64,000 nucleotides of DNA, from the NCBI GenBank assembly GCA_965203355.1, contig OZ241889.1:3296001-3360000 (forward strand). Reading direction: 5' to 3'. The translations under genes and the position numbers were made by a program. Origin of the DNA: Candidatus Latescibacterota bacterium (lineage in GTDB: Bacteria > Latescibacterota > UBA2968 > UBA8231). A model generated the notes under the pieces. It had not been told where the DNA came from. It searched no databases and was given only the letters and a program-made list of their open reading frames with translations. Shown in pieces: positions 16,553-40,520 of the stretch. Position 1 is the stretch's first letter, and each line of letters begins with the position of its first letter.

Positions 16553-16918
16553 TCAATTATCGCTCAAGGACTTCTCAAGATCTTCTACTGCTTCTATTGC
16601 CTCGGCAATCTCTTTCTTGACCGGATTGATAGTACTGTCGTGGCTGAGCGGATTTAAAATGATCTTTCGGTACAGTTCAATCTTTTCAATGAGTTCTTTT
16701 TTTAATAAACCTTTGCATTTTATCGGACGCCAAAAATCTTCAAATTGGTGAGAGCTGACGGCGGATTCCAAGAATAGCTTCAACGCCATATACAGCGATG
16801 ACTTTCCACTACCGTTTTCACCGTAAATGAGCAGGTTCTTTCCAGCCTTGTGTAGGTTGATTTGGTACGACCCGTAGAAGGCTCTGAAGTTTTTAATTTC
16901 AATCTCTGTAATTCTCAT
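16553..16918 (-). pseudogene. Internally deleted ABC/AAA ATPase with HEPN-like tail
   Basis: MRITEIEIKNFRAF and Walker A GENGSGKSS run almost directly into a RKIILNPLSHD tail in only 121 aa; no signature or Walker B; ATGA overlap with the RM gene. Confidence 0.7.
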
Positions 16919-18975: not shown

Positions 18976-21481
18976 TAAGTGCTGAGCAATAACTATCGGT
19001 AAGCAATGTTCTTGGGTTAATAAAAATCAACATCCCATTGTTCGCTAACAAATCACTCAACCCACGGTGAATAAAATAGCCATAAAGATTGGGACGACCA
19101 TAGACACTTTCGCTATAAATTTTGCGCAACTTTTTGTCTTTACTCACCACGTAAGGCGGATTACCAATCACCACATCAAATCCATCAGCAACCCCAAACA
19201 TGTACTCAGCATCAAACCAATCGGCCTTATCATTTTGATTATAGGGGTTCCAATGGGCGATCTTGTCCGCGTCATCTAGGGGAAGCCCGGCCGATTTTAG
19301 TTCCCTCGCCAGCATCCCGCGCAACCGCTTGTCCTCGCTTCTGCAAGCTAATTTCTTCCGGCGCGTGGTCGCGTGAAAATGCTGCTCTCGATTGTCTCCT
19401 AGCTTCTTTTTTAGCTCCTCAATCTGTTGGCGGAATAAGTCCAGTTGATCTGCTTCTTCGATCCTCAACAGCGTGTTCGCCGCCACAAAGCGCGTCTCCA
19501 AGTTCGGCAATGGCTTGATGCCAAAATTCTCCGCGTTGAGATCGCGATCCTGCTCAATCGCTAGCGAAATGAAAAAGCGCAACTTGGCGATCTGGCAGGC
19601 GATAGGCTGAATATCCACGCCGAAAATGCTGTTCTGAATGAGATACAGCTTGCGTCCGAAATCTCCTGAATACCGCGCAAAAGTTTCGCTAATATCCAAC
19701 AACTCCGCATCTCGTTCCTGCTGATCTCGATCCTCAAACGCCTGGATCGCCCGTTCTTTGGCTCGCTCCTTTTGCAGTGCTTCCCAGCGTTCATTGTCAG
19801 GGTCGATTCGCTGCAACGCCAAAGTCAGCTTATGCAGTACGCCCATGGGAAATGCACCGGTGCCAACAGCCGGGTCCAGCACTTTGACCTCGGCAATCGC
19901 CTGTACAAGACACTCTGATTCTTCTTCCTCAAAAAGCTCGTTGGCGTCGTCGAATGTATCCTCATAATCCAGCAGATAATGCAAGCGTTCTTTCCAGAAG
20001 GCCATGTCACCATCGTTCGGATAGCATTTTTCTGCCAAGGTCGCCACTAACGCTTCTTCCGCCATATAATCCACGACGACACGCGGTGTGTAGTACGATC
20101 CAGTCTGCTTGCGGGCTGTCTCACGTGTTTCTGGATTGTATGTTGCCAGCAAGTTCTCAAAGATATTGCCGAGTAATTCCGGATCCAGAGCGACTTCTTG
20201 CTCTATGGGCGTGTTCTCCTCCACCGTGAACTTGTACTTGTTGAATAAGGTGATTAGCCCCTCGGTGCCGAAAAACAAGCGATTGGGAACGGATAGCAAC
20301 TTGCGATGACTCGGATTGTCGGAAAAGCAGTCGATGCGGTAGCCACCATCGCCGGTCGCCGCTTCACTGTCGAGGCAGTCAAACAAGCCGCCGTTGATGA
20401 AAGGGGTCTGAGCAAACAAGTCCAATAGCGCATCGGGATCGTTGATTTCTTTTTTATAGCGATAGCGAGAAAAATTGCGGTGTGTAGTGTTGCTTACTTT
20501 GCTAAAGTCGCGCTTGCTAATTTCCGTGTTCAGGGTGGCGAAAAACAGATTTTGCAACACGGCGCGGTAATAAGAATCCCCGGTGTCGCGGTCGTAATTT
20601 TTCAGCAGTTGGCCGATTTGTTTCTCAACGAATAGCTCTTCGGCGACCAGCCCTTTTTCTTTAATGAACCAGACAAAGAGCAGACGGGTAATGAGGCGAA
20701 TGACGTGTTCCTCCGGCGGGAGCGTTCGCTGCTGATTGTTCGGAAAAGTCGCCTGACTGACAGCACGCTCAAACCAAGCGAATAGGTCTTGGTAGAACTT
20801 CCGGTTCAGTTCCTCAGTGTCCAGCGCGTCCAACCAAGCAGCTAGCAACCCGTCAAAATTCATTGGATGGCCGTTGTCACCCATCCAATGCAGCCGTTTT
20901 TCCAACACAAGGTCGCCGAGAATTTCCAAGTGAGCGCGATGCGGATCGCTCAAATCTATCTGCCGCACGAGCGCAACGCTGCCGAGCACATCGCGCTCCG
21001 GGTTGCGCTTGTTCTCGCGGCGATAGACAAAAGCGAGCGTCAGCAGATCGCTGGTGGTCTTGAATAGAACGACGGTGGGTATGAGAAATCGCTTGTTGAT
21101 CTCGCGCGTGAACAGGGCATACTCGCTGCGAGCGTAATTCGCCCCGCTCAACTCCACTGCCACAAAGAGAAAGCTCTTGCTGTTGCCGCTATCAAAATCG
21201 TCGATTGTAGGCCCACTCCCCCCAGCCGCGATTTCCGCGTCCGTTAGCTGAAAGACGATATGCGCGGATGCAGCACTGCTGCGAAACGCCGCCTCTGACT
21301 GCGTGTTGGGTGTTGTGGATGGCAGCGCGGCGAGAAAAGCATCTACATCGCCGGAAAGCGGAATCGTCTTCGCGCTCTCGTAGCCCAGCGCATTAAGCAA
21401 CTTCTGCGTTGCCGCCATGAAGTCGGTCTCTAGCATGGCGGCCAGCGCAGCCGTAATTCGGTTTATGCTCGAGTCATTCAT
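18976..21481 (-). pseudogene. 5' part of Eco57I-like type IIG restriction-modification/N6-adenine methyltransferase gene
   Basis: RLITRLLFVWF, PFINGGLF, DPELLGNIFE, GSYYTP, LDPAVGTGAF (motif I), FDVVIGNPPY (motif IV). Confidence 0.9.
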
Positions 21482-21538
21482 TGTCTATAATACGCTCAGC
21501 CAATATGGACTAGGACAAATTGCACACCAAGCCGCCAA

Positions 21539-21566
21539 TTGACAAGAATTAGCTACGCGCTTTAAT
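21539..21566 (+). promoter_or_regulatory. Sigma70-type promoter of the large cluster
   Basis: TTGACA (21539-21544), 16 bp, TTTAAT (21561-21566), upstream of SD AAGGA and GTG 21615. Confidence 0.6.
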
Positions 21567-21614
21567 GTACTTAAAACGTTCAACCTCCACTTCTTCCCTA
21601 TTTAAGGACTAGCC

Positions 21615-23780
21615 GTGTCCAACCTCCGCCTGCAATTTCCCGGTGCCTTGCTTAGCCTCCTGTTCGCCGCTTCCAGTGCCGACCCAGCCGACTGGCCTTC
21701 TTGGCGCGGACCAACGCAAAACGGCGTCTCCGCAGAAACCGACCTCGTCGAATCCTGGTCGCCGGTCTGGCACGCCGCATTCACCGGACGCTCGACCCCC
21801 ATCGTCCTCAACGGACGAGTATTCGTCATGGGTCGCCGCGGCGAGGGTATCGAGCACGAGGGCGTCGTCGCCGCCTTTGACGCCCAAGACGGCACCCTAC
21901 TCTGGGAGCACACCCACAACATCTTCCACACCACCATCCCCTTCAACCGCGTCGGCTGGGCCAGCCTCGCTGGCGACCCAGAGACCGGCTACATCTACGC
22001 CCATACCGTCAGCGGACTGTTCCTTTGTTTTGACCGCGATGGCGAGGTGGTCTGGTCGCGCTCGCTGACCGAGGAGTTCGGGCGCATCTCCGGCTACGGC
22101 GGCCGCGTCCACACGCCCGTCGTCGATGAAGATCTCGTCATCATCAGCTATCTCAGTTCCAACTGGGGCCATCACACCCCGGGCCGCCACCGCTACTTCG
22201 CCTTTGACAAGCGCAGCGGCGAAGTCTTCTGGATCGCCACCCCGGGCGGCCGACCGCTCGACACCACGTACTCGGTGCCGGTCGTCGCCACCATCAACGG
22301 CGTCCGCCTGCTCATTGGCGGCAACGCCGACGGCTCCATCTACGCCCTGAAAATCCGCACCGGCGAAAGCGCGTGGGGCTTCAAGCTCAGTCGGCGCGGC
22401 ATCAACGCTTCGGTCGTCGTCGCGGGCGACAAGGTGTACGCCGCCCACAGCGAGGAAAATCTCGACAACACCGCCCTCGGCCGCGTCGTGTGCATCAACG
22501 CCACCGGCCAAGGCGACGTCACCAACACCCACGAGGTCTGGCGCTACGACGGCGTTTTCGCCGGTTATAGCAGTCCAGTTGTCGGCGATGGCCGCTTGTA
22601 CATCATCGACAACTCGGCCAACATCCACGCGCTCGACGCCGCCACCGGCCAAGTCCACTGGATCCACAACATCGGCACCGTCGGCAAAGGATCGCCCGTG
22701 CTGGCCGACGGGCGGCTCTACGCGCCAGAAGTCAACGGCCGCTTCGCCATCGTCGCCCCGGGTCCCGACGCGGCCGAGACCCTGGACCTCGCCGAGATTG
22801 CCATGCCCGACGGACGCCCGGCCGAACTGTTCGGCTCGCCAGCCGTAGCGTATGGCCGCATCTACCTTTCCACCGAGGCCGGCGTTTACTGCCTCGGCGA
22901 CCCGGCCGCGCCGTTTGCGGTCGCAGCGACCGCCGCCGACTATCCACGCGAGCCAGCACCCGCAGACGCCACCCCGGCGCATCTGCAAATCACGCCCGCC
23001 GAAGTAGTAGCCCAGCCCGGCGCCAGCCTAGCGCTTCGCGCCCGAGCCTTCGACGCAAACGGGCGGCTCATCGGCCCAGTCGCAGCCGAGTGGTCGCTCG
23101 CCGGTCCGGTCGGCCAACTCGACGGCCATACGCTCGTCCTCGCGGACGCACCCGGCGGCGGCAAAATCGTCGCCCGCGCCGGCGAACTGGTCGCCGAGGC
23201 GCGCATTGCCGTGCTGCCGCCGCCGACCTACAGCGCGGACTTTGAGGAATTCGCCGTTGACGCCGCGCCAGCTTGGGTCGGCATAGGCCGCAAGTTCACG
23301 GTGCGCGAAGTGGCAGGCAACAAGGTGCTGGTCAAGCCACCCGCCGCCCGCGGCCTGCACCGCGCCAACACCTACCTCGGCGCCCCGGACATGGCCGGCT
23401 ACACCATCCAAGCCGATCTGCTCGGCACCAAGAAGCGCCGCGCTGTCCCGGATCTCGGCCTGATTGCCCAGCGCTACACTCTCGACCTGATGGGCTACCA
23501 CCAGCAGTTGCAGATCCGCACTTGGGCCGCCGAGCTGCGGATGGCCAAGACCGTGCCCTTCGCTTGGGAAACCGGCGTCTGGTACACCATGAAGATGCAG
23601 GTGGAAATCGCCGGCGATACCGCCCACATTCGCGGCAAGGTCTGGCCCCGCGACGCGCCAGAGCCAGCCGCGTGGAGTATCGAGGCGGTCGATCCCCGAC
23701 CCAACCGCAGCGGCAGCCCCGGACTCTACGGATATTCTCCCGCTGAAATCTACTACGACAACCTGAAAGTTTGGCCATGA
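21615..23780 (+). CDS. Secreted PQQ-like beta-propeller protein with C-terminal Ig-like and beta-sandwich domains
   Basis: Signal peptide, DWPSWRGP, repeated AFD..DG..LW and SP(V/A) blades. Confidence 0.8.
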   Translation: MSNLRLQFPGALLSLLFAASSADPADWPSWRGPTQNGVSAETDLVESWSPVWHAAFTGRSTPIVLNGRVFVMGRRGEGIEHEGVVAAFDAQDGTLLWEHTHNIFHTTIPFNRVGWASLAGDPETGYIYAHTVSGLFLCFDRDGEVVWSRSLTEEFGRISGYGGRVHTPVVDEDLVIISYLSSNWGHHTPGRHRYFAFDKRSGEVFWIATPGGRPLDTTYSVPVVATINGVRLLIGGNADGSIYALKIRTGESAWGFKLSRRGINASVVVAGDKVYAAHSEENLDNTALGRVVCINATGQGDVTNTHEVWRYDGVFAGYSSPVVGDGRLYIIDNSANIHALDAATGQVHWIHNIGTVGKGSPVLADGRLYAPEVNGRFAIVAPGPDAAETLDLAEIAMPDGRPAELFGSPAVAYGRIYLSTEAGVYCLGDPAAPFAVAATAADYPREPAPADATPAHLQITPAEVVAQPGASLALRARAFDANGRLIGPVAAEWSLAGPVGQLDGHTLVLADAPGGGKIVARAGELVAEARIAVLPPPTYSADFEEFAVDAAPAWVGIGRKFTVREVAGNKVLVKPPAARGLHRANTYLGAPDMAGYTIQADLLGTKKRRAVPDLGLIAQRYTLDLMGYHQQLQIRTWAAELRMAKTVPFAWETGVWYTMKMQVEIAGDTAHIRGKVWPRDAPEPAAWSIEAVDPRPNRSGSPGLYGYSPAEIYYDNLKVWP

Positions 23781-25198
23781 CGCAAACCATTTGCAGCCTC
23801 ATCCTCGCCCTCGCCGCGGCCGCCGGCGCCCAAACCGCAATGTGGGGCGGCTCGCCCGGGCGCAATCCGGTCTCGGACGAGCAAAACCTGCCCACCACTT
23901 GGGACGTCGAGACCGGCGCAAACGTCAAGTGGCGGGCCACGCTCGGCTCGCAGACCTACGCCGGGCCCCTAATCGCCGGCGACAAAATTTTCGTCGGCAC
24001 CAACAACCAAGCCGAGCGCGATCCCAGCCATAAGGGAGACCGCGGCGTAGTCATGGCCTTTTCCCTAGCAGACGGTGCTTTCCTCTGGCAAATCGCCCAC
24101 CCCAAGCTGCCGGCTGGCCGCGTCAACGACTGGCCGCAACAGGGCGTCTGCTCCACTCCTTTTGTCCACGGCGATCGCCTCTACTACGTCTCCAACCGCG
24201 CCGAAGTCGTCTGCCTCGACACCGAGGGCTTCCGCGATGGCGAGAACGACGGCCCCATCGCCGACGAAACCGCCACCGCGCCCACCAATGCGGATCTGAT
24301 CTGGAAATTCGACATGATCGCCGAGTTGGACGTCTTCCCCCACAACCTCGCCACCAGCTCGCCACTCGGCGTGGACGGTCGCCTCTTTGCCCTGACCAGC
24401 AACGGCGTGGACGAGGGCCACATCCACATCCCGGCCCCCTTTGCCCCCAGCTTCATCGCCCTCGACATGCAGACCGGCCAGCTCCTCTGGGACAGCGCCC
24501 TGCCCGGCGACCAAATTCTGCACGGCCAGTGGTCCAACCCGGCCTATGGCGAGGCCGGGGGCCGCAAGCAGGTCGTCTTCCCCGGCGGCGACGGCTGGGT
24601 CTATGCCCTCGCGCCCGACACCGGCGAGTTGATCTGGAAATTCGACTGCAACCCCAAGGATTCGGTGTGGGAATTGGGCGGGCGTGGCACCCGCAACAAC
24701 CTCGTCTCCACGCCCGTCTTTTACGACGGCAAGGTCTATATCGGCGTCGGCCAAGACCCGGAGCACGGCGAAGGCGAGGGTCACCTATGGGCCATTGACG
24801 CCAGCGGCACCGGCGACATCACCGAGACGGGCGCAATCTGGCACTTCGGCGACAAAAACTACAACCGCACCATCTCCACGGTCGCCATTGCCGACGGCCT
24901 GCTCTACGCCGCCGACCTGAGTGGCTTTGTCTATTGCCTCGACGCCAAGACCGGCACCCACCACTGGACCCACGACACCTTCGCCGCGATCTGGGGCTCG
25001 CCCTTTGTCGCCGACGGCAAGGTCTATATCGGCGACGAAGACGGCGACGTCGATGTGCTCAAGGCCGGCAAAACGCTCGCAGTACTACACGAGACGAACT
25101 TGGGCAGCGCCGTGTACACCACCCCAGTCGCCCGCGACGGCGTCTTGTACATCGCCTCGCGCAACACCCTCTTCGCCATCGCGGCGGCAAGCCAATGA
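23777..25198 (+). CDS. Secreted PQQ-like beta-propeller protein
   Basis: Signal peptide, LPTTWD..NVKW, CLDAKTG..HW, WGSPFVADGKVY; ATGA overlap with the upstream gene. Confidence 0.8.
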   Translation: MTQTICSLILALAAAAGAQTAMWGGSPGRNPVSDEQNLPTTWDVETGANVKWRATLGSQTYAGPLIAGDKIFVGTNNQAERDPSHKGDRGVVMAFSLADGAFLWQIAHPKLPAGRVNDWPQQGVCSTPFVHGDRLYYVSNRAEVVCLDTEGFRDGENDGPIADETATAPTNADLIWKFDMIAELDVFPHNLATSSPLGVDGRLFALTSNGVDEGHIHIPAPFAPSFIALDMQTGQLLWDSALPGDQILHGQWSNPAYGEAGGRKQVVFPGGDGWVYALAPDTGELIWKFDCNPKDSVWELGGRGTRNNLVSTPVFYDGKVYIGVGQDPEHGEGEGHLWAIDASGTGDITETGAIWHFGDKNYNRTISTVAIADGLLYAADLSGFVYCLDAKTGTHHWTHDTFAAIWGSPFVADGKVYIGDEDGDVDVLKAGKTLAVLHETNLGSAVYTTPVARDGVLYIASRNTLFAIAAASQ

Positions 25199-26271
25199 GC
25201 GTCTCACCCGATAAAATCGCCGCGGCCCGCCGCGACCTCGACGCGCACGTCCGCGCCATCGTCGAGTGGCACTTCAACCCCGCAACCGGCTGCCCGTTCT
25301 GGCTTGCCTACGCGCAACAACTCGATTTCGACCCGCGCGAGCAAATCCGCTCCTATGACGATTTGGCCCGGCTCGGCCACTTTGAGGACGAGTGGCTGCG
25401 CGGCGGCCCGGTGCGTCAGTGGGTGCCCAAAGCCTATGCTGACGAGCCGATTTGCGTTTTTGAGACCGGCGGCTCCACGGGCTTGCCCAAATACCGCATC
25501 AACATCCGCGACTTCCAAGCCGACTACGCGCTCTACAGCGAGAGCCTGCCCGAGGAGGGTTTTCCCCAGGGCGCCGACTGGCTGATGCTCGGGCCTTCGG
25601 GGCCCCGCCGCCTGCGCTTGGCCATCGAGTATCTCGCCCAGCTACGCGGCGGCTTGTGCTTTCTGGTAGATCTCGACCCCCGCTGGGTCAATGAACTCAT
25701 CCGCGACGGCAAGATGCGCGAGTTAGACGCCTACAAAGCCCACGTCGTCAATCAGGCGCTCAAAATCCTCAAGGCCCACGACAACGTGCAGTGCGTCTTC
25801 ACCACGCCCCGCCTCCTTGAAGCCCTCTGCGAAAAAGTCTCCCTGCCCAAGCTCGGCATTAAGGGCATCTTCTGTGGCGGCACGGAAATGAACGCCCAGT
25901 TCCATCGCTTCGCCCGCGAGGAGTTGGTGCCCGGCCTCGCCTTTGTCCCCACCTACGGCAACACCCTAATGGGCCTCGCCTGCCCTAAACCCTTTGACCC
26001 AGCCGACGAATACGCCATCGCGTATTACCCACCGCAGCCACGCGCCGTCATCGAGTTGGTCGATCCCAAAGATCCCACGCGCAAGGTCGGCTACGGCGAG
26101 ACCGGCCGCGTCATGCTCACCACCCTGACCGAGGAATTTTTCATGCCCCGCTTCCTCGAACGCGACGAAGCCGAACGCACCGCGCCGATTGAGGCGTATC
26201 CGTGGGATGGCGTTAAAAATTTGCGACTGCTGACCGAGTTGCAGGAGGCGGTGGTGGTGGGGGTGTATTGA
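25195..26271 (+). CDS. EhpF/EsmD2-like short adenylate-forming enzyme
   Basis: WHFNPATGCPFWL, FDP, ETGGSTGLPK, VDLDPRWV, GGTE, YGNT, ERD and C-terminal GVY match recalled EhpF motifs; ATGA overlap fixes the start at 25195. Confidence 0.8.
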   Translation: MSVSPDKIAAARRDLDAHVRAIVEWHFNPATGCPFWLAYAQQLDFDPREQIRSYDDLARLGHFEDEWLRGGPVRQWVPKAYADEPICVFETGGSTGLPKYRINIRDFQADYALYSESLPEEGFPQGADWLMLGPSGPRRLRLAIEYLAQLRGGLCFLVDLDPRWVNELIRDGKMRELDAYKAHVVNQALKILKAHDNVQCVFTTPRLLEALCEKVSLPKLGIKGIFCGGTEMNAQFHRFAREELVPGLAFVPTYGNTLMGLACPKPFDPADEYAIAYYPPQPRAVIELVDPKDPTRKVGYGETGRVMLTTLTEEFFMPRFLERDEAERTAPIEAYPWDGVKNLRLLTELQEAVVVGVY

Positions 26272-26328
26272 GAGAACAGCTTATCACTTATAGCTTGCAA
26301 CACTTCATCGCCAACCCAAAACCCAACC

Positions 26329-27726
26329 ATGCACCTACCCATCCTCCGCGCCGGCCAGCCCTACACCAGCCTCGACCGCCTCACCATCGCCCACATCGCC
26401 ACCGGCCAACCTGTGGCCCAAGTCAGCCAAGCCAACCGCGGCCTCATTGCCCGCGACTTAGCCGCCCAAGAGCGCAACTACCACGCCCTGCAAGCGCTCC
26501 CGGTCGCCGAACTAGTCGCCATCGGCCAACGCGCCGCCGACCTTTTCTTGCGCGCCGAGCTACCTTTAGGCGACCGCCGCCAAACCCCGGACGACTACGT
26601 CGCGCAAGTCTCGGCCACCACCGGCTTGCCGCAGTCGCTGGCCCGCGCCAACATGGACAAAATCCACCGCGTCGGCAGCGAAATGCCCGCCGTACTCAGC
26701 GGCCTGACCCGAGGCCTAGACCTGGCCACCCTCGACGACGGCCCCAGTCCGCTCCATTTCGCGCCCCATGCTCAAGCCCTCGGCTGCATCCTGCCGAGCA
26801 ACTCCCCCGGCGTCCACGCCCTGTGGCTGCCAGCCATCCCGCTCAAAATCCCGCTGGTGCTCAAGCCGGGCCGCGAAGAGCCGTGGACGCCCTACCGCAT
26901 CGCCCAAGCCCTGGCCGCAGCCGGCTGTCCACCCCAAGCCCTGAGCTACTACCCAACCGACCACGGCGGCAGCACCGAGATTCTGCTCGGCTGCGGGCGG
27001 TCGCTGCTATTCGGCGGCGGTTCTACAGTCGCCCCTTGGCGCGACGATCCCCGCATCCAACTACACGGACCAGGGCGCAGCAAGATCATCATCGGCGCGG
27101 ACCAAATCGACCGCTGGGAACACTATCTCGACTTGATGGTCGCCTCAATCGCCGCCAACGGAGGCCGCTCCTGCCTCAACGCCTCGGGCGTCTGGGTGCC
27201 CGCCCATGGCCGCGCCATTGCCGCCGCCCTCGGCGAGCGCCTGAGCCAAATCCAAGCCCGCCCCCTCGACGACCCTCAAGCCCAAATCGCCGCCTTCCCC
27301 AAGCCGGCCGTAGCGCGTCAGATCGCCGCCCTCATCGACGGCCAACTCGGCGACAAAGCGCAAGACACCGCGAGAGGACCTGCCGAGCGCGTCGCCGAGA
27401 TCGATGGCTGCACCTTCCTCAACCCGACCTTAATCCACGCCCCGGACTGGCAACATCCGCTGGCCAATACCGAATATCTCTTTCCGTTTGCCTCGGTAGT
27501 AGAAGTCCCGCAAGAAGAAGTGGTCGCACGCATCGGCCCGACGCTGGTGGCCACCGCCCTCACCGAGGACGAGCGCCTAACGCGCCAACTGCTCGCCGCC
27601 CCCCACATCGAACGCCTCAACCTCGGCCCGATCCCCACCCACGAGATCGCGTGGGATCAGCCGCACGAGGGCAACCTCTTCGACTTCCTCTACCAGCAGC
27701 GCGCCTTGCAGCGCCGGGCCGGATGA
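26329..27726 (+). CDS. ALDH-superfamily acyl reductase (EhpG-like)
   Basis: LPSNSPGVHALW, LKPGREEPWTPYR, catalytic Cys in NGGRSCLNAS, EYLFPF; LHGPGRSK in place of canonical ELGGK. Confidence 0.75.
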   Translation: MHLPILRAGQPYTSLDRLTIAHIATGQPVAQVSQANRGLIARDLAAQERNYHALQALPVAELVAIGQRAADLFLRAELPLGDRRQTPDDYVAQVSATTGLPQSLARANMDKIHRVGSEMPAVLSGLTRGLDLATLDDGPSPLHFAPHAQALGCILPSNSPGVHALWLPAIPLKIPLVLKPGREEPWTPYRIAQALAAAGCPPQALSYYPTDHGGSTEILLGCGRSLLFGGGSTVAPWRDDPRIQLHGPGRSKIIIGADQIDRWEHYLDLMVASIAANGGRSCLNASGVWVPAHGRAIAAALGERLSQIQARPLDDPQAQIAAFPKPAVARQIAALIDGQLGDKAQDTARGPAERVAEIDGCTFLNPTLIHAPDWQHPLANTEYLFPFASVVEVPQEEVVARIGPTLVATALTEDERLTRQLLAAPHIERLNLGPIPTHEIAWDQPHEGNLFDFLYQQRALQRRAG

Positions 27727-28850
27727 CCCCCTTCGACTTTGATCCATCCACCCGCGTAGTCTTTGGCGCCGGAACCCTCGGCCAGCTAGGCACCCTCGCC
27801 AGCGCGTTGGCCGGCCCGCGCATCCTGCTCGTAACCGATCCCGGCCTCGTCCAAACGGGCCTCGCCGCCCAAGCCCGTCGCGCCCTACAAAACGCCGGCC
27901 TCAAGACAACCACTTTTTCCGCCGTAGCAGAAAATCCCACAACCGACCACGTAGCCGCTGGCGCCGACCACGCCCGCACCCACGGCCCCATCGACCTCAT
28001 CGTCGCCTTGGGCGGCGGCAGCGCCATGGACTGCGCCAAGGGCATCAACTTCCTGCTGACCAACGGCGGCCCGATGCACTTCTACCAAGGCTACGGCAAA
28101 GCCACCCGACCCATGCTGCCTTCCATCGGCATCCCCACCACCGCCGGAACGGGTAGCGAGGCCCAATCCTACGCCCTGCTTACCTGCGCCAACACCGGCG
28201 CGAAAATGGCCTGCGGCGACCGCAAAGCGCGCTTCCACATCGCCATCCTCGACCCAAACGCGCTGACCAGCGTCCCCCACCGCGTCCGCGCCGATGCCGG
28301 TATCGACGCCCTCGCCCACGCGGTCGAAAGCTACGTCTGCACCTGCCGGACGCCGCTGTCCCAGATGTTCGCCCGCCAAGCCTGGCGGCTGCTCGCACCC
28401 CACTACGCAGCCGCTGTCGCCGATCCGCAAAACGCGACCGCCGCTCTGCTTTTAGGTGCTCATCTGGCTGGCATGGCCATCGAAAACTCCATGCTCGGCG
28501 CCGCTCACGCCACCGCCAATCCGCTCACCGCCCACTACGCACTCACCCACGGCCGCGCCGTAGCCCTGATGCTGCCGCACGTGATCCGGTTGAACAGCCA
28601 AGCGGTGGACGAGCTATACGGCGAACTTTGCGCCGACATCCAACTCAACGGCCGGGGCCGCGCACTCGCCGCCCACCTCGAAAAATTGTGCGCCACAGCC
28701 GGCCTACCACGCCGACTCGCCGATTGTCAGGTCGCCGAAAATGATCTGCCTACCATGGCCCGAGCAGCCGCTGGTCAGTGGACCGGGACCTTCAACCCGC
28801 TTCCCTTGCAAGAAGCCGACTTCCTGCGGCTTTACGAGGCGGCGTTTTGA
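27723..28850 (+). CDS. Iron-containing alcohol dehydrogenase
   Basis: GGGSAMDCAK, IPTTAGTGSE, DALAHAVE, AHATA, THG; ATGA overlap gives start 27723. Confidence 0.9.
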   Translation: MTPFDFDPSTRVVFGAGTLGQLGTLASALAGPRILLVTDPGLVQTGLAAQARRALQNAGLKTTTFSAVAENPTTDHVAAGADHARTHGPIDLIVALGGGSAMDCAKGINFLLTNGGPMHFYQGYGKATRPMLPSIGIPTTAGTGSEAQSYALLTCANTGAKMACGDRKARFHIAILDPNALTSVPHRVRADAGIDALAHAVESYVCTCRTPLSQMFARQAWRLLAPHYAAAVADPQNATAALLLGAHLAGMAIENSMLGAAHATANPLTAHYALTHGRAVALMLPHVIRLNSQAVDELYGELCADIQLNGRGRALAAHLEKLCATAGLPRRLADCQVAENDLPTMARAAAGQWTGTFNPLPLQEADFLRLYEAAF

Positions 28851-29139
28851 TGGACAACTTTCGACTGAAACCAAATGCGATATGTAAAATTATCCTTCAG
28901 GCGTGCGGAGAAATTGCACTTCGCTCCTTGCTTCCGCTCCCTACGCCGAGCAACAAGCGCGAATGCGTCACAAGCAAGCTATTCAGAACGGAGAACATTT
29001 CATCCGGCAATTCCAAGGTGACTTTAGTCATAATCAACGTTCTGATTTCTCACACTCGGTTAAGGCTGGTGTCTGTCACCAAATCAGCAAAATGTCACTT
29101 CTCTTTTAATTTCGTCCACAATCCCCCAACCAACAGAAT

Positions 29140-30228
29140 ATGCCACTCTACTTCTTAACCGCGTTCCTCGCCACCGCGGCTACGGCCGACACTTGGAACA
29201 CCTTTCGCGGCAACCCCCAACTCACCGGCGTCGCCTCCGCCGAGCTCGCCCCACCCCTAACGCTGCGCTGGGCCTACGCCACCCAAGACGCCATCGAATC
29301 CACGGCCGCCATACACAAAGGCACGGTGTACGTCGGCTCACTCGACGGACAACTCTATGCACTCGACTTGCACACGGGCGCGTTGGTCTGGCAGTACCAA
29401 GCCGACGGCGAGATCAAGTCGTCGCCCACGGTAGCCGACAGCACCGTGTACTTCGGCGACGAAGCCGGCACCTTCCACGCCGTCGCCATTGAAAACGGCC
29501 AGCGCCGCTGGACCTTCACGGCCGACGCGGGCATCATCTCCGCGGCCAACTACGCGGATGGCCGTCTTTACTTCGGCAGCTATGACCAGCACCTATACTG
29601 CCTCGGCGCAACCGCCGGGACCCTGATTTGGAAAATCGCCACAGAGGGGTATATTCACAGTACGCCGGCATTGTACGAACATCGCGTCGCCGTGGCGGGT
29701 TGCGACGGCTACTTGCGGCTTTTGGACCGCGCCGACGGCACCGAGCACCAGCGGCTTGAGCTGGGTGGATACGCAGCCTCCAGCGCCGCCATCCACGCGG
29801 GAAGCGCGTACTTAGGCACTTTTGGCAACGAAGTACTAGGCGTCGATTTAGGCGCGGGAGCCATTCGCTGGCGCTACGCCCACGCGGTGCGGAAATTTCC
29901 GTTTTACTCGTCGCCCGCTGTCGCCGACCAAGCAGTCGTCATCGGCGGCCGCGACAAACTCGTCCACGCGCTCGACCCACAAACCGGCCAATCCTTGTGG
30001 ACTTTTGCCGCGGGCATACGGGTGGATTCCTCGCCGGTCATTGCTGGTGCCTATGTGTACGTAGGGGCCCGGGCGATCATCGCCATTGCCATCGCCTCGG
30101 GCGCGGAAGTCTGGCGCTTTGACCCGGGCGCAGCCATCACCGCTTCGCCCGCTATCGCCGCGGACCGACTCGTCCTGGGTGCCACCGACGGCGTGCTGTA
30201 TTGCTTTGCCAAAGAAGTCAAACCATGA
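29140..30228 (+). CDS. Secreted PQQ-like (BamB/AfsK-type) beta-propeller protein
   Basis: WNTFRGN, VYVGSLDGQLYALD..TG..VW repeats. Confidence 0.8.
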   Translation: MPLYFLTAFLATAATADTWNTFRGNPQLTGVASAELAPPLTLRWAYATQDAIESTAAIHKGTVYVGSLDGQLYALDLHTGALVWQYQADGEIKSSPTVADSTVYFGDEAGTFHAVAIENGQRRWTFTADAGIISAANYADGRLYFGSYDQHLYCLGATAGTLIWKIATEGYIHSTPALYEHRVAVAGCDGYLRLLDRADGTEHQRLELGGYAASSAAIHAGSAYLGTFGNEVLGVDLGAGAIRWRYAHAVRKFPFYSSPAVADQAVVIGGRDKLVHALDPQTGQSLWTFAAGIRVDSSPVIAGAYVYVGARAIIAIAIASGAEVWRFDPGAAITASPAIAADRLVLGATDGVLYCFAKEVKP

Positions 30229-31574
30229 GTGATGCTAAGTCCCAACCGAGCAACGACCCCGCGACCACCCGCGCCGACCGCACCGCCACCGAGGTCGGCA
30301 GCGTCTTTGTCTCCAACTATCCCGCCTATTCGTTCTGGGGCGAGGAAGACGTCCCGCAAGCACACCGCGCACTCGCCGAGCCACCGCGGCCCGGCACTCA
30401 GCTCGGCCTCTACCTCCACATCCCCTTCTGCCGCAAGCGCTGCAAGTTCTGTTACTTCCGCGTCTATACGGACAAAAACAGCCAGCAAATCCAGACCTAT
30501 CTCGACGCCCTCGCCCGCGAAGTGGAACACTACGCGCAACAGCCAGCCATCCAAGACCGGCCCCTGCACTTTATCTACTTTGGCGGCGGCACGCCCTCTT
30601 ACATCAGTTCGCGGCATCTCCGCGCGTTGGCAGCACGCCTCCAAGACGCCATGCCTTGGGACCACGCCGACGAAATCGCCTTCGAGTGCGAGCCGGGCAC
30701 CCTGACCCAAGCCAAGTTAGAAGCCATCCGCGCCATCGGCGTCACCCGCCTCAGCTTGGGTATAGAAAACCTCGACGACGAAATTCTGCGCCACAACGGC
30801 CGCGCCCACGTCAGCCAGGAAATCTACCAAGTCGTGCCCTGGATCCACGCGCTCGACTTCGAGCAGGTCAACGTCGATCTGATCGCCGGCATGGTCGGCG
30901 AAACCTGGCCGAGCTGGCGGCAGACCGTGCAAAAGACCGTCGAGCTCAATCCGGACAGCGTCACCGTTTATCAGCTCGAGTTGCCCTACAACACGGTCTA
31001 TTCCAAGGACCTACTCGCTGGCGACCGCACGCCGCTGGCCCTGGCCGACTGGCAGACCAAACGCGCCTGGCACGCCTATGCCTTCGAGCAGCTAGCCGCC
31101 GCTGGCTACGTGCGTTCGAGCGCCTACACCATGACGAAAACGCCGGGCGCCCGCTTCGCGTACCGCGACGCCGTGTGGACCGGCCAAGACCTGCTCGGCA
31201 CCGGCGTGGCCTCCTTCTCGCACCTGAGCGGCGTCCACTACCAGAACGCGCCCAACTGGGACGAGTACCTCGCCGCCTGCGAGCGCGGCGAACTCCCCAT
31301 CCACCGCGCCTTTGCCACCAACCGCGAAGAGCAACTCACGCGCGAGGTGATCCTCCAGCTCAAGTTAGGCGCGTTGGATCCCGCGTATTTTCGCGCCAAA
31401 TTCGGGGTCGATATCGCGGCCCATTTCGCGGCGGCACTCAGCGGCCTGCGCGACGAGGGCATGCTCCAATTCGATGCCAACGCGATTGCGCTGACCAGCG
31501 AGGGCCTCCTGCGCGTCGATCAGCTGCTGCCCGACTTCTACCAAACCCAATACCGCAACGCACGCTACACCTAA
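30225..31574 (+). CDS. HemN-like (class C) radical SAM enzyme
   Basis: LYLHIPFCRKRCKFCYF (CxxxCxxC), YFGGGTPS, RLSLG, NVDLIAG; N-terminal SNYPAYSFW; ATGA overlap. Confidence 0.85.
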   Translation: MSDAKSQPSNDPATTRADRTATEVGSVFVSNYPAYSFWGEEDVPQAHRALAEPPRPGTQLGLYLHIPFCRKRCKFCYFRVYTDKNSQQIQTYLDALAREVEHYAQQPAIQDRPLHFIYFGGGTPSYISSRHLRALAARLQDAMPWDHADEIAFECEPGTLTQAKLEAIRAIGVTRLSLGIENLDDEILRHNGRAHVSQEIYQVVPWIHALDFEQVNVDLIAGMVGETWPSWRQTVQKTVELNPDSVTVYQLELPYNTVYSKDLLAGDRTPLALADWQTKRAWHAYAFEQLAAAGYVRSSAYTMTKTPGARFAYRDAVWTGQDLLGTGVASFSHLSGVHYQNAPNWDEYLAACERGELPIHRAFATNREEQLTREVILQLKLGALDPAYFRAKFGVDIAAHFAAALSGLRDEGMLQFDANAIALTSEGLLRVDQLLPDFYQTQYRNARYT

Positions 31575-31587
31575 ATGGGAGGTACCC

Positions 31588-32832
31588 TTGAAAACCACCA
31601 TCGCACTTCTGCTCTGCTGGACCGCCGCGGCCCAAGCGGCCGACTGGCCTCAATGGCGCGGCCCTCAGCGCGACGGCATCTCCAGCGAAACCGGCCTCTT
31701 TAAGGCCGAGCAACCTTTTGCGGAAGCATGGCGCGTCCCGCTCGGCTCGGGCTTCTCCGGCATCGCTATCGCCGACGGCCGGGTCTTCACCATGTTCGCC
31801 CAAGGCCAAGACGAATTCGCCATCTGCCTCGATGAACAAACCGGCGCAGAACGCTGGCGGCACCGCACCGGCCCTTACTACCGGGAGACCCAAGGGGGCG
31901 ACGGCCCGCGCGCGACGCCCACCGTCGATGGCGAAGTCGTCTATGTACTCGGGGCCACCGGCGCGTTGTTCGCGCTCGACGCCGCGCGTGGTGCGCTGAT
32001 CTGGGAAAAGGATCTGGTCGCTGAATTTAACAGCGAAGTGCCCAGGTGGGGCTTTAGCACCTCGCCTTTAGTCGAGGGCAATCTGCTGCTCGTCGAAGCG
32101 GGCGGCGTCAATGGCAACTTCCTCGTCGAAATGGTCGTCGATCACCGGGCCGCGGCCACGGTCGTCGCCCTCGACAAGGCCAGCGGCCAAACCGTTTGGA
32201 CCGCGCTCGACGACAAAATGGGGTACTCGTCGCCGATCGCCTGTACCGTCAACGGCCAGCGGCAGCTCGTCTTCTTCACCGCGTACTCCCTGATCGGCTT
32301 GGCGCCAACCACCGGCCAAACCCTCTGGACCTATCCGTGGCAGACGCGCTACGACGTCAACGCCGCCACCCCGGTTTTCATCCCACCCAACCGCGTCTTT
32401 ATCTCCTCGGCCTACGACAAGGGCGCCGCGGTCGTGCAGATTGGCGCGGACGCGGCCATCGAGGAGGTCTGGCGCAACAAAGAAATGCAGAACCAATTCA
32501 GCACTTCGGTGTACCTCCAAGACCATCTCTACGGCTTTGACAAAACGATCCTCAAGTGCATCGACGCCCGCACCGGCGCGGAAAAGTGGAAGACCCGGGG
32601 CTACGGCAACGGCTCCCTAATCGCGGCCGACGGGCACCTCATCCTGTTGGGCGAAAAAGGCAACCTCGGCCTCGCCCAGGCCTCCCCCGAAGGCTTTGTC
32701 GAAAAGGCCAGCTATCCCGCCTTTGACAGCCGCTGCTGGACCGCTCCTTCGCTGGCCAATGGCCGTCTCTACCTGCGCGACGAAAGCGAAATGGTCTGCG
32801 TGAACATACACTCAGTGGGAGCGGATCAATGA
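31588..32832 (+). CDS. Secreted PQQ-like beta-propeller protein
   Basis: SD GGAGG with TTG start; ADWPQWRGP, GPRATPTVDG, GYSSP, WTAPSLANGRLYLR. Confidence 0.8.
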   Translation: MKTTIALLLCWTAAAQAADWPQWRGPQRDGISSETGLFKAEQPFAEAWRVPLGSGFSGIAIADGRVFTMFAQGQDEFAICLDEQTGAERWRHRTGPYYRETQGGDGPRATPTVDGEVVYVLGATGALFALDAARGALIWEKDLVAEFNSEVPRWGFSTSPLVEGNLLLVEAGGVNGNFLVEMVVDHRAAATVVALDKASGQTVWTALDDKMGYSSPIACTVNGQRQLVFFTAYSLIGLAPTTGQTLWTYPWQTRYDVNAATPVFIPPNRVFISSAYDKGAAVVQIGADAAIEEVWRNKEMQNQFSTSVYLQDHLYGFDKTILKCIDARTGAEKWKTRGYGNGSLIAADGHLILLGEKGNLGLAQASPEGFVEKASYPAFDSRCWTAPSLANGRLYLRDESEMVCVNIHSVGADQ

Positions 32833-34964
32833 GCAATTTTCGCGGCATCCTGTTGATTTTTGCCTGGTTGCCAGCTACCCCCCTCGTCCACGCCCAAAGT
32901 GCCGACGACTCCCTCCACGTCGTCGACGAAACCATCGTCACCGGCGCGCGGCTGGCCATCCCCCGCGCCAACGCCATCGCCACCAAAATGCCCCTGCCCC
33001 TGCACAAAACGCCCCTAAGCGTCGGCATCGTCCCCCAGGCCCTAATCGAGACCCAAGACGGAGCGACCCTCAGCGACGCCCTGGCCCATGTCAGCGGCGT
33101 CGGCGTCCACACCAACTTTGGCGTCCACGACCTGTTCTACCTGCGCGGCTTCGACTCGCTCGCCAACGGCTTGGTGCTCTCGGACGGAGCACCCGAGCCC
33201 GAAGCTACCTTCTACCAACTCTACAACGTCGAGCGCGTCGAGGTCCTCAAAGGGCCCGGGGCCTTCCTCTACGGCGGCAACCCGCTGTCGGGCACCATCA
33301 ACCTCGTCCGCAAACGGCCCACCCCGGCGCGCGACTTTGCCCGCGTCAACGCCTCAATAGGCCGCTTCTCCACGTACCGCGCCACCCTCGACGCCAGCCG
33401 CGCCCGGCCCGAGCACAATCTCGCTTGGCGTCTCAACGCGCTGTGGCAGGACGCAGCCGGCTACCGCGACGACAAACACAGCGCCATCATCGCCGTAAAC
33501 CCAACGCTGCGGCTGGACCTCGGCGCGCGGGCGACACTACACCTCGACTTTGAGTATTTGACGAGCGAACATCGCTCGGACTCCGGGCTGCCCATCGTCG
33601 CGGGCGCCTTGCCCGAGGTGCCGCGCACCCGTTCATACCAATCGCCCTTTGATATTTCCGAGCAGACCATCCTGCGCTTTCGCGCCGACTATGAATGGCA
33701 TTTAGGGCCCCATTTCACTTTGCGCGACAAACTCTACTACACCAGCCTCGACTGGCCCTCGCAGGGCACCCTGTTCAACGGAGTTTTTCCCACCGCGGCC
33801 GGTTCGCTTAACCTCGCCCGTACCCTGCTCGACCTCGACGACCAGCAGTGGATCGTCGGCAACCAACTCGAGGGCCTCCTAAAACTTCAAACCGGCGATA
33901 TTGAACACCAGTTGCTCTTTGGCCTAGAGGTCGCCAACCACGCCGACGACTTCACCCTAAACGTGGCCTTGCTTTCGCAGGTCGATCTGTTCACTCTCGA
34001 CGCAACGTTGCCCCCGAGTCTGGCCTCCTTCATGCCAGCCGCCGCCGGGACCGATTCCCTTTTGGTCCCCCTGCCCGACCAAGCCACCGCCGCCCAAGCC
34101 GCCGCGCAAACATGGGCGCCGTACTTTGTCGATCGCCTAATTTTCAGCCCCCACTTTGAGCTGTTGCTCGGGGGCCGCTTTGACAGGATCCACTACGAGG
34201 ACGATTTCACCGCCACCCAGCGCGATTACCGCCAGTTAAGTCCGCTGATCGGGGCCACTTTCGCGCCCACTCAGGCCCTCTCGCTCTACGCCAATGCGGG
34301 CCGCGCTTTTGCCCCGCCTTCCTCCCAAGTCGCTGGCGACCGCCAACCCGAAGAAAGCACCCAGCGCGAAATCGGCGCCAAAGCCGCGCTGCTCAACGGC
34401 CAACTCACCGCCAACCTCGCCCTCTTCAGCCTCGACAAAGAGCACATCGCCATCCCCGACGATAATGGAGTCACCCGGCAGCTCGGCAACCAGCGTGCCC
34501 GGGGCCTAGAGGTGGAACTGGCCGCGCGGCTGGCCCAAGGCTGGTACGCCCAAGGCACCTACGCCTTTTTAGACGCCGAGCTGACGCACTTCAACGAATC
34601 GGTGTTGGTCCCCACCGCCGATGGCTTGGTCCCCCAGGTCTTTGACCGCACCGGCAAGGTGCCGGCCTTCGCGCCCGAACACCTTTTGACGCTGTGGGCC
34701 GCCCGCGACCTAGGCGCGAACCTCACCTTGGCGGCCGGCATCCGCTACGTCGGTAGCCAGTTCGTGGCCGAGGACAATGTCTATGCGATCGACCGGGTGC
34801 TGACGCTCGACTGCGGGCTGACCTATCGGCGAGGTCCCGGGCGGCTGCGGATAAATCTCAAGAACGCGACCAACAGCGAATACGAGACCCGCGGCTTCGG
34901 GGCCACTTCGGTCATCCCGGCGGCCCCTTTCTCCTTTAAGGCGTCCCTAGGGTATTCGCTGTGA
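32829..34964 (+). CDS. TonB-dependent receptor (siderophore-receptor-like)
   Basis: ETIVTG, ATKMPLPL..TPLSV, LRGF, ERVEVLKGPGAFLYG, GTINLVRK, RGLEVE, KNATN..Y, C-terminal beta strand. Confidence 0.9.
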   Translation: MSNFRGILLIFAWLPATPLVHAQSADDSLHVVDETIVTGARLAIPRANAIATKMPLPLHKTPLSVGIVPQALIETQDGATLSDALAHVSGVGVHTNFGVHDLFYLRGFDSLANGLVLSDGAPEPEATFYQLYNVERVEVLKGPGAFLYGGNPLSGTINLVRKRPTPARDFARVNASIGRFSTYRATLDASRARPEHNLAWRLNALWQDAAGYRDDKHSAIIAVNPTLRLDLGARATLHLDFEYLTSEHRSDSGLPIVAGALPEVPRTRSYQSPFDISEQTILRFRADYEWHLGPHFTLRDKLYYTSLDWPSQGTLFNGVFPTAAGSLNLARTLLDLDDQQWIVGNQLEGLLKLQTGDIEHQLLFGLEVANHADDFTLNVALLSQVDLFTLDATLPPSLASFMPAAAGTDSLLVPLPDQATAAQAAAQTWAPYFVDRLIFSPHFELLLGGRFDRIHYEDDFTATQRDYRQLSPLIGATFAPTQALSLYANAGRAFAPPSSQVAGDRQPEESTQREIGAKAALLNGQLTANLALFSLDKEHIAIPDDNGVTRQLGNQRARGLEVELAARLAQGWYAQGTYAFLDAELTHFNESVLVPTADGLVPQVFDRTGKVPAFAPEHLLTLWAARDLGANLTLAAGIRYVGSQFVAEDNVYAIDRVLTLDCGLTYRRGPGRLRINLKNATNSEYETRGFGATSVIPAAPFSFKASLGYSL

Positions 34965-39166: not shown

Positions 39167-39168
39167 CA

Positions 39169-40473: not shown

Positions 40474-40485
40474 ACGCGGGGGATT

Positions 40486-40514
40486 TTGACAAATTTACGA
40501 TTCAATCGTAAATT
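40486..40514 (+). promoter_or_regulatory. Promoter overlapped by a perfect 23-bp palindromic operator
   Basis: TTGACA 40486-40491, 17 bp, TAAATT 40509-40514; AATTTACGATT-C-AATCGTAAATT at 40492-40514; ATG at 40521. Confidence 0.75.
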
Positions 40515-40520
40515 CGCCAC

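Follow-up and report, generated by a model that had tools for sequence, protein, structure and literature searches.

A predicted two-protein carboxylate reductase of the EhpF/EhpG kind at the core of a conserved gene cluster in a Latescibacterota bacterium

Two adjacent genes in a 64,000-nucleotide (nt) stretch of DNA from Candidatus Latescibacterota bacterium (GCA_965203355.1, contig OZ241889.1, positions 3,296,001-3,360,000 of the forward strand; hereafter the window) encode an EhpF-like adenylating enzyme and an EhpG-like protein with an aldehyde dehydrogenase (ALDH) fold, which on balance appear to make up an ATP- and NAD(P)H-dependent carboxylate reductase of two components, of the same kind as GriC/GriD and EhpF/EhpG. 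The case is built on homology, on the residue pattern of both proteins, on gene linkage and on a predicted complex. The pair is followed by the gene of an iron-containing alcohol dehydrogenase (Fe-ADH), and the preliminary description of this DNA had treated the three genes as a unit. Comparison of related loci gives a different picture: the conserved cluster is much larger, with the pair at its core, and in the window the trio is not self-standing and lies inside a cluster of about 18 genes. The kind of enzyme is already known, and the window pair belongs to a distinct, highly conserved subfamily of it in a new genomic setting. The three genes are as follows.

25195-26271, forward strand: EhpF-family adenylating enzyme, a truncated ANL protein of 358 residues without the C-terminal subdomain (assigned by its match to EhpF in the PDB)
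26329-27726, forward strand: EhpG-family ALDH-fold protein of 465 residues, proposed acyl-adenylate reductase (EhpG homology; Pfam Aldedh)
27723-28850, forward strand: iron-containing alcohol dehydrogenase, intact, 375 residues (Pfam Fe-ADH and ADH_Fe_C)

The EhpF-like adenylating enzyme

Judged by similarity over its full length, the EhpF-like protein is a member of the EhpF family of atypical ANL enzymes. It aligns with the solved EhpF (3l2k/3hgu) with an E value of 1.8e-43 and 152 bits, residues 9-358 of 358 standing against residues 14-366 of 366 in 3l2k_A, and it is 31% identical (E 8e-47) to the EhpF encoded on a Pantoea agglomerans plasmid. The EhpF-type motifs that had been claimed for it, which are WHF, TG.PFWL, E.GG.TG.PK, D.DPRWV and the C-terminal GVY, are all present in both aligned proteins. 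The ANL P-loop, ETGGSTGLPK, spans residues 90-99, and nine of its ten residues are invariant among 15 sequences; since this loop is retained in the truncated enzyme, formation of an acyl adenylate is possible. The sole Pfam match is the AMP-binding core, at residues 196-307, with 28.4 bits, just below the cut-off, and no NCBIfam model is reached. No AMP-binding_C domain, the C-terminal domain of ANL enzymes, is found by the Pfam scan in the 358 residues. To judge from its sequence, the protein lacks the domain whose rotation brings ANL enzymes into the thioester-forming second half-reaction. The ATG of the gene overlaps the TGA of an upstream beta-propeller gene (ATGA at 25195-25198).

The EhpG-like ALDH-fold protein

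The second protein is matched by Pfam Aldedh at 55.4 bits (cut-off 23) and is 26% identical to Pantoea EhpG (E 3e-36), with the GPGRSK motif in both. A significant alignment to both EhpF and EhpG, which had been set beforehand as the check on the assignment, is thereby found, at significance levels that exclude a chance match. Its AlphaFold2 (AF2) model, with a predicted local distance difference test (pLDDT) value of 90.1, has an ALDH fold, and a fold search with this model returns ordinary ALDHs as the best hits, with a TM-score of about 0.73, and no nearer solved relative.

The active site is conserved in one part and altered in another. Cys282 aligns with the catalytic Cys of ALDHs, which is the nucleophile, and Asn158 occupies the oxyanion-hole position. 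The segment LHGPGRSK, residues 245-252, stands opposite LEAGGKSP of 6b4r and places His246 at the position of the general-base Glu. All 57 orthologues taken from the related loci described below have Cys282, Asn158 and His246, and Pantoea EhpG has Gln at the former Glu position. The earlier reading of this gene as an ALDH-fold protein that keeps the catalytic Cys and carries LHGPGRSK in place of the hydrolytic Glu motif is confirmed by the 6b4r alignment and by the orthologues. The thiol and the oxyanion hole are kept and the hydrolytic base is lost, which is the pattern expected if Cys282 accepts an acyl group and releases an aldehyde. The residue pattern of the two proteins, taken together, fits a carrier-free carboxylate reductase.

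Predicted complex and proposed reaction

The EhpF-like and EhpG-like proteins are predicted to form a complex with a score of 0.71, and the best of three controls scores 0.00. The mark used for complex prediction is reached by 116 of 157 solved complexes and by 2 of 215 mismatched pairs, counts which are only approximate because our own alignments were used. Contacts agree by at least 92% between runs, and the partner has a pLDDT of at least 91. The predicted interface includes invariant residues of both proteins: Q235, F236, R238-E243 and E209 of the EhpF-like protein, and S14, N36 and G38 of the EhpG-like protein. This prediction supports direct contact between the two. It is unlikely to be the memory of a solved structure, because we know of no solved complex of such a pair and a PDB sequence search with the EhpF-like protein returns EhpF entries only.

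In the reaction that we infer, a carboxylic acid would be adenylated by the truncated ANL enzyme, and within the complex Cys282 of the ALDH-fold partner would take over the acyl group from AMP. NAD(P)H, the presumed cofactor, would then supply the hydride that frees the aldehyde; hydrolysis of the thioester is not expected, because the general-base Glu is replaced by His246. In this lineage the coupled Fe-ADH would further reduce the aldehyde to the alcohol.

Gene fusions bear on the same question. Distant EhpF-like domains are fused to a class III aminotransferase (P0198, 824 residues) and to a zinc-dependent alcohol dehydrogenase (Zn-ADH; P0219, 725 residues); both partners use aldehydes, which would fit aldehyde production as circumstantial support. 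Among 18 longer matches, eight, including P0272 and P0275, carry Aldedh and are predicted EhpF-ALDH fusions, all of them singletons, which may be artefacts of assembly or gene calling because the two genes are adjacent or overlapping. P0273, a predicted EhpF-ALDH-FeADH fusion, is a single sequence on a single contig, and its Fe-ADH part is patchy. The predicted propeller-EhpF fusions P0277, P0279 and P0281 are given equally little weight. A further singleton, P0274 (634 residues, 65% identity to the window protein), joins an EhpF-like domain to a DUF1295 membrane domain.

The split carboxylic acid reductase proposed in the preliminary description thus stands as far as homology, residues and the predicted complex are concerned; as a build it is not new, since GriC/GriD has it already.

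Comparison with known systems

EhpF and EhpG of the ehp (D-alanylgriseoluteic acid) cluster of Pantoea agglomerans belong to the same two families as the window pair and are adjacent in the same gene order. The two EhpF proteins align over their full length, have common motifs and are both without the ANL C-terminal domain, and the two EhpG proteins have the GPGRSK motif and the Cys in common. The Pantoea pair differs, however, in showing only 31% and 26% identity, in falling into a separate clade, and in having Gln in place of the His of the window clade at the former Glu position. No phenazine (phz) genes lie near the window pair, and its neighbours are quite different.

LuxE/LuxC combines a short adenylating enzyme with a reductase of the ALDH superfamily, which has a catalytic Cys and yields an aldehyde. 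The similarity to the window pair is one of logic only: the window is without a LuxD-type transferase or luciferase, and Pfam LuxE and LuxC (which we take to be PF04443 and PF05893) match neither protein at E≤0.01. One-chain carboxylic acid reductases (CARs), built as A-PCP-R, such as the Nocardia CAR, use ATP and NADPH and have a phosphopantetheinyl carrier domain and a reductase domain of the short-chain dehydrogenase/reductase (SDR) type. Their net reaction is the same as that proposed here, but the window pair lacks a carrier domain and its reductase has the ALDH fold; Pfam PP-binding and NAD_binding_4 have no match in the EhpF-like or EhpG-like protein, and no carrier domain is found by Pfam among the 18 cluster open reading frames (ORFs) scanned. 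In ProB/ProA an activated acyl anhydride is passed to a reductase of the ALDH superfamily, which forms a Cys thioester without hydrolytic chemistry. Activation is by phosphorylation in that system, as opposed to the adenylation proposed for the window pair.

According to PMC10179220, GriC, an AMP-binding protein, and GriD convert 3-amino-4-hydroxybenzoate through the acyl-AMP into the aldehyde and together constitute a carboxylic acid reductase. As described, GriC/GriD, which belongs to grixazone formation in Streptomyces griseus, follows the same two-protein adenylate-then-reduce logic as proposed here and differs in having a known substrate within a small-molecule pathway. The NCBI name "arylcarboxylate reductase" is carried by some Streptomyces homologues that are 34-38% identical to the EhpF-like protein and form a separate clade. 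Two of their regions, on Streptomyces plasmids, were inspected (L082:7944-9029 and L085:7944-9029); in both, the EhpF homologue lies directly upstream of a type I polyketide synthase, and an ALDH-like gene is not among the listed features, the PLSDB gene tables being incomplete. These loci suggest a different use of the adenylating enzyme, perhaps the loading of a starter unit.

No description of this clade or cluster was found in the literature searched (EhpF/EhpG, griseoluteic acid, split carboxylic acid reductase and GriC/GriD). To our knowledge, only a few pathways, for antibiotics or pigments, have so far been shown to contain carrier-free two-protein carboxylate reductases. In the present case such chemistry would occur in a tightly conserved clade with carriers from several mostly uncultured phyla, in a recurring setting of transporter, beta-propeller and glycosyltransferase genes. 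The substrate, if found, would assign a role to a cluster that soil Acidobacteriota and sponge-associated Poribacteria commonly carry. As a compact acid reductase that needs no carrier domain, the pair could also be of use in biocatalysis. If the substrate is an ordinary aryl acid, it would simply be another member of the GriC/GriD and EhpF/EhpG kind.

Relatives and the phenazine question

The EhpF-like protein has at least 8000 database relatives, the best 120 of which are all 73-92% identical to it; the best 120 relatives of the ALDH-like partner are 59-100% identical, the first being the window protein itself. In a library clustered at 50% identity, 1500 matches are found at E≤1e-3 and 272 at E≤1e-30, with one full-length representative at 65% (P0121) and the next full-length ones at 33-46%. 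A scan of one genome per species places a relative of the EhpF-like protein in at least 594 species. The best 80 of these, with flanks of at most 10 kb, are the related loci compared here; they are 64-93% identical to the EhpF-like protein, and their record titles name Latescibacterota (L001, 93%), Gemmatimonadota, Poribacteria, many Acidobacteriota classes and Phycisphaerales. The taxonomic labels of metagenome-assembled genomes are taken as given, and a few, L021, L031 and L070 among them, resemble binning errors.

A maximum-likelihood tree was built from 48 rows, which comprise the window protein, 7 close database matches, 6 locus translations, 5 plasmid-borne homologues, 28 full-length representatives among 150 listed (fragments excluded) and the PaaK-like protein of the window as outgroup. 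The window EhpF-like protein falls into a clade of 15 rows with support 100/99. The Pantoea and Burkholderia EhpF proteins, which are phenazine-linked, fall into another clade (94/98), and the Streptomyces "arylcarboxylate reductase" proteins and the haloarchaeal homologues make up separate groups.

EhpF/EhpG are thought to reduce a phenazine carboxylate. A phz core operon elsewhere in the genome would make the pair an ordinary phenazine tailoring system, a possibility to which some weight is lent by the fact that the sole solved relative, EhpF, is from a phenazine pathway, by the Pantoea and Burkholderia plasmids, where the EhpF/ALDH pair lies inside phz clusters, and by the visible part of the genome being 64 kb. 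It is nonetheless extremely unlikely. PhzA/B, D, E, F and G, with Pantoea queries, have no tblastn match at E≤1e-3 in the window and the 80 related loci (81 sequences, 1,365,494 bases), in which EhpF matches 81 and EhpG 65 of the 81 sequences. The tailoring proteins EhpH, K, L and M have no match in the same sequences either, and the conserved neighbours are propellers, a GT4 glycosyltransferase and ABC/FtsX proteins instead of phenazine modifiers. The clade of the window protein is distinct from the phz-linked clade, and its carriers are Latescibacterota, Poribacteria, Gemmatimonadota, Acidobacteriota and Phycisphaerales, which are groups not known as phenazine producers. Pfam scans likewise find no phz genes among the 42 ORFs of the window. 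The absence of phenazine genes stated in the preliminary description is thus borne out within the window and the related loci. Its suggestion of an imported phenazine does not fare as well, given the clade of its own and the 81 sequences without phz, and a phenazine is unlikely to be the substrate of the pair.

Conservation of the neighbourhood

Neighbour frequencies were counted over the 63 loci whose sequence continues for 3 kb or more past the EhpF-like gene on its downstream side. In 58 of them the EhpG-like partner is adjacent or nearby, the other five being L006, L015, L045, L051 and L059, and this partner is followed in frequency by GT4 (36), the ABC ATPase (29) and the FtsX permease (26). 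The EhpF/EhpG pair is therefore the constant core, and GT4 is the next most constant partner. Two layouts recur. The first repeats the order of the window and is found in Latescibacterota, Gemmatimonadota, Poribacteria, Thermoanaerobaculia and some unclassified records. The second, which is that of most Acidobacteriota, consists of the EhpF-like and EhpG-like genes, GT4, a LolD/YbbA-like ATPase, a permease of about 1100 residues with two FtsX domains, and propellers, often with a small hydrophobic protein in addition. The genes of this second layout are also present in the window, about 5 kb further downstream of its run of 13 genes. In two Blastocatellia loci (L042:969-6201 and L073:1161-6439) two EhpF-like paralogues (66% and about 60% identical to the window protein) occur in the order EhpF, GT4, EhpF, ALDH.

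The Fe-ADH is matched over the full length of both Pfam models, Fe-ADH at 153 bits (cut-off 31.3) and ADH_Fe_C at 126.9 bits (cut-off 27). No NCBIfam equivalog, and with it no substrate class, can be assigned, the best being ErcA at 264.6 against a cut-off of 550. The start ATG and the TGA stop of the ALDH-like gene overlap (ggATGAcc, 27723-27726), and the two genes are translationally coupled, in line with the ATGA coupling described earlier. Membership in the unit, which had been claimed with it, is true of the window but optional elsewhere: an orthologue is present in 15 of 63 loci, and in L002, the second-closest locus, the ALDH-like gene is followed directly by the next propeller. The Fe-ADH is a lineage-specific addition to the EhpF/EhpG pair. 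Of the 46 loci with 9 kb or more of sequence to either side, none has Fe-ADH and the ABC genes together, a separation which may be an effect of viewing range because the two are about 17 kb apart in the window, beyond the 10-kb flanks. Downstream of the Fe-ADH gene, a 289-nt AT-richer spacer (28851-29139), the largest gap in the gene run, separates it from the next propeller gene; the spacer has one weak promoter-like site (28861-28890) and no Rfam match.

An archaeal version of the arrangement is found on a plasmid of Halalkalicoccus jeotgali (L084:5508-9566), where genes for a sodium:solute symporter (SSF), an EhpF-like and an ALDH-like protein form a triad. The EhpF-like and ALDH-like proteins are 36.6% and 27% identical to those of the window, and no phz gene is among the annotated neighbours. 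The triad is near an IclR regulator and an SDR gene.

Gene content of the cluster

Positions 21615-40473 hold an unbroken run of 13 co-directional genes, the ends of which mostly overlap or nearly abut. Apart from the three genes given above, this run and the second half of the cluster consist of the following.

21615-23780, forward strand: secreted PQQ-like (BamB-like) beta-propeller, 721 residues, first of the co-directional cluster (Pfam PQQ_2, 139.5 bits)
23771-25198, forward strand: secreted PQQ-like beta-propeller, 475 residues, whose stop overlaps the start of the EhpF-like gene (PQQ_2, 97.9 bits; orthologue in 30 of 80 loci)
29140-30228, forward strand: secreted beta-propeller, 362 residues (Beta-prop_ACSF4, 196.5 with cut-off 133; PQQ_2, 143.4; orthologue in 15 of 63 loci)
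30201-31574, forward strand: HemN-like radical SAM enzyme, 457 residues, start uncertain (Pfam Radical_SAM and HemN_C; orthologue in 14 of 63 loci)
31588-32832, forward strand: secreted beta-propeller, 414 residues (PQQ_2, 112.9 bits)
32829-34964, forward strand: TonB-dependent outer-membrane receptor of siderophore type, 711 residues (TIGR01783, 248.3 with cut-off 223.5)
34961-36238, forward strand: PaaK-like aryl/acyl-CoA ligase, 425 residues (NCBIfam PaaK, 261.5 and 230.1, both below cut-off)
36235-37491, forward strand: flavoenzyme resembling FAD-dependent halogenases and geranylgeranyl reductases, 418 residues (Trp_halogenase, 98.5 bits; FAD_binding_3)
37667-39166, forward strand: sodium:solute symporter (SSF), 499 residues (Pfam SSF, 144.8 bits)
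39169-40473, forward strand: GT4 glycosyltransferase, about 434 residues, with its ATG at 39169, 2 nt past the SSF stop (Glycos_transf_1 and Glyco_transf_4)
45180-45683, forward strand: small hydrophobic membrane protein, 167 residues, possible half-size transporter of EamA/DMT type (Atlas feature score)
46098-46775, forward strand: LolD/YbbA-like ABC ATPase, 225 residues (NCBIfam LolD, 242.9 against 307.75; YbbA, 218.4)
46760-50020, forward strand: FtsX-type permease of very large size, about 1086 residues, with two FtsX domains and a probable GTG start at 46760 (Pfam FtsX)
50027-51307, reverse strand: secreted beta-propeller, 426 residues, convergent with the permease gene (PQQ_2, 137.7 bits)

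The propeller of 721 residues has an N-terminus that, read by eye, looks like a signal peptide, and in 29 of 80 loci its orthologue stands shortly before the EhpF-like gene; the propeller of 426 residues is 64% identical to propellers beside EhpF-like genes in related loci. The radical SAM protein reaches no NCBIfam equivalog (HemN 201 against 325, ChuW/HutW 200 against 400), and its PDB matches, HemN (E 1.7e-37) and the methyltransferase NocN (E 1.9e-27), give no specific clue to a substrate; a PDB sequence search with the GT4 protein gives no specific clue to its acceptor or substrate. The TonB receptor matches Pfam Plug and TonB_dep_Rec_b-barrel, with an orthologue in 7 of 63 loci. The PaaK-like ligase also matches FlxY (NCBIfam, 158.5) and Pfam AMP-binding_C_2, and the flavoenzyme stays below all NCBIfam cut-offs (CmlS 204.9 against 900, QhpG 145.1 against 240).

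The small membrane protein has no Pfam or NCBIfam match; it has an Atlas feature score of 0.97 to clusters automatically named "putative EamA domain-containing protein" and is at most 59% identical to a protein present in nine related loci. The window ABC ATPase is 61% identical to the ATPase that follows EhpF-EhpG-GT4 in Acidobacteriota loci, and the FtsX permease is 42% identical to the permease of about 1100 residues of related loci.

A promoter and terminator scan of 21300-41200 gives 3 promoter-like and 18 terminator-like sites, which equals the expectation from shuffled sequence (3.1 and 18.1), and an Rfam scan of the whole window gives no match and hence no riboswitch.

Direction and substrate of the pathway

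Every statement on the substrate of the pair is conditional. Since the cluster contains GT4, SSF, a TonB receptor, ABC/FtsX proteins and propellers, the pathway is probably directed to the envelope or linked to import, with the aldehyde or alcohol as an intermediate and not as its end product.

Could the module run in the oxidative direction? The Fe-ADH and the ALDH-like protein would then oxidise an alcohol to an aldehyde and on to an enzyme-bound thioester, and the EhpF-like protein would handle the acid or acyl group, for instance by activating it for another acceptor, so that the module would be catabolic or acyl-transferring. An alcohol dehydrogenase followed by an ALDH is the commonest catabolic pairing, the cluster has uptake genes in the TonB receptor (above its NCBIfam cut-off) and the SSF, and the haloarchaeal plasmid has an SSF directly before its EhpF/ALDH pair, near the IclR regulator. 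This direction is nevertheless very unlikely, as the Glu that hydrolyses the thioester is replaced by His in all 57 orthologues, most loci are without Fe-ADH, and the distant fusions to an aminotransferase and a Zn-ADH fit aldehyde production. The characterised analogue, GriC/GriD, is also described as running reductively.

Several observations weigh against the reductive two-protein enzyme itself. The AF2 model of the EhpF-like protein is poor, with a pLDDT of 56.7 from a 15-row alignment. The interface segment 233-243 of this protein is not conserved in Pantoea EhpF, and the predicted complex may therefore be specific to the clade, or wrong. Members of the clade carry only generic names in all sources, those of the best 120 relatives of each protein included, and kinship with GriC/GriD is drawn solely from the NCBI product names of homologues. 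The Fe-ADH is missing from 48 of 63 loci, L002 (84% identity) among them, so the formation of an alcohol is not an obligate part of the system. The cluster, lastly, mixes uptake genes (TonB receptor, SSF) with genes of export or biosynthetic type (GT4, ABC/FtsX).

With the reductive direction kept, the acid could be a fatty acid, as in LuxCDE, which would be reduced through the aldehyde to the alcohol, glycosylated by GT4 and passed as a glycolipid to the envelope by the LolD/YbbA-like ABC/FtsX transporter. LuxE and LuxC are similar in size to the proteins of 358 and 465 residues, the order EhpF-EhpG-GT4-ABC-FtsX is fixed in the Acidobacteriota loci, the ATPase is closest to LolD and YbbA, and an acyl-CoA thioesterase of YbgC/FadM type lies directly before the ABC genes in the window. 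Against this stand the absence of matches to the Pfam LuxE and LuxC models noted above, the thioesterase, which is present in none of the 80 loci, the characterised relatives, which all act on aryl acids, and the lack of linked lipid-synthesis genes; a fatty acid is quite unlikely on this evidence.

Alternatively, the substrate could be a carboxylate imported through the TonB receptor and then the SSF, to be reduced and further modified in the cytoplasm. An SSF gene belongs to the operon both in the window and in L019 and L029, the SSF-EhpF-ALDH triad occurs in Halalkalicoccus, and a predicted SSF-EhpF fusion (P0284) has three member sequences on two contigs; the PaaK-like ligase and the flavoenzyme would suit the handling of aromatic acids. 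Within the 10-kb view, however, the SSF is found in 2 and the TonB receptor in 7 of 63 loci, the Acidobacteriota loci carry GT4 and ABC/FtsX genes instead, and the window SSF is 30% identical (E 1e-56) to the one directly before the Halalkalicoccus pair, an identity between two SSF proteins that is not specific. Import as the source of the acid is thus rather unlikely.

The EhpF-EhpG-GT4-ABC-FtsX order fixed in Acidobacteriota, the LolD/YbbA-like ATPase and the secreted propellers point instead to delivery of a glycosylated product to the envelope. As a broader and tentative possibility, the pair may be the catalytic heart of an undescribed envelope pathway across Acidobacteriota, Poribacteria, Latescibacterota, Gemmatimonadota and Planctomycetota. 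In the cytoplasm an acid, either imported or common in the cell, would be reduced and then glycosylated by GT4, the giant type VII (FtsX) ABC transporter and the EamA-like protein would pass the product across the inner membrane, and the secreted PQQ-like beta-propellers, presumed to be without cofactor, would receive it; the product might be a new envelope glycoconjugate or metallophore. If so, the identity of 64-93% over the 80 loci would reflect a universal substrate and not a niche antibiotic.

Other features of the window

Low-GC stretches flank the cluster. The first (16553-21481, 42-55% GC as against about 63% elsewhere) is directly upstream and contains an ORF of 372 residues without Pfam match (16915-18033, reverse strand), an IS4/5-type DDE transposase (18253-18873, reverse strand) and an Eco57I-like restriction-modification methylase of 843 residues (18950-21481, reverse strand). 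The second (51475-53481) lies just past the last propeller gene and contains a protein with MTaX1 and HNH endonuclease regions (51475-52476, reverse strand) and an N6/N4 DNA methylase (52483-53481, reverse strand). Islands of restriction-modification type therefore lie on both sides of the conserved cluster.

A protein of 711 residues, encoded between the cluster halves (41110-43245, reverse strand), has Ig-like domains and a type A sorting domain of the type IX secretion system (TIGR04183, 34.2 with cut-off 23). An adenylosuccinate-synthetase-like gene (43992-45146), below the NCBIfam cut-offs (294.3 against 368; PurZ 116 against 300) and not represented in the 80 loci, is oriented divergently to the gene of a LysR regulator (43113-44006, reverse strand) and closely precedes the genes of the small membrane protein and the ABC transporter.

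Further out, two paralogous DUF6785/DUF6784 proteins are encoded at 9495-11636 (reverse strand) and 58358-60298 (forward strand), the second of which adjoins an SBP_bac_5 solute-binding protein (56328-58322, reverse strand). A sulfur-ester neighbourhood at 4392-13490 includes a sulfotransferase (4392-5474, reverse strand), an arylsulfotransferase (7205-8530, forward strand) and a sulfatase (11640-13490, reverse strand), and sulfatases also adjoin the cluster in Poribacteria loci, for example at L052:14175-15674.

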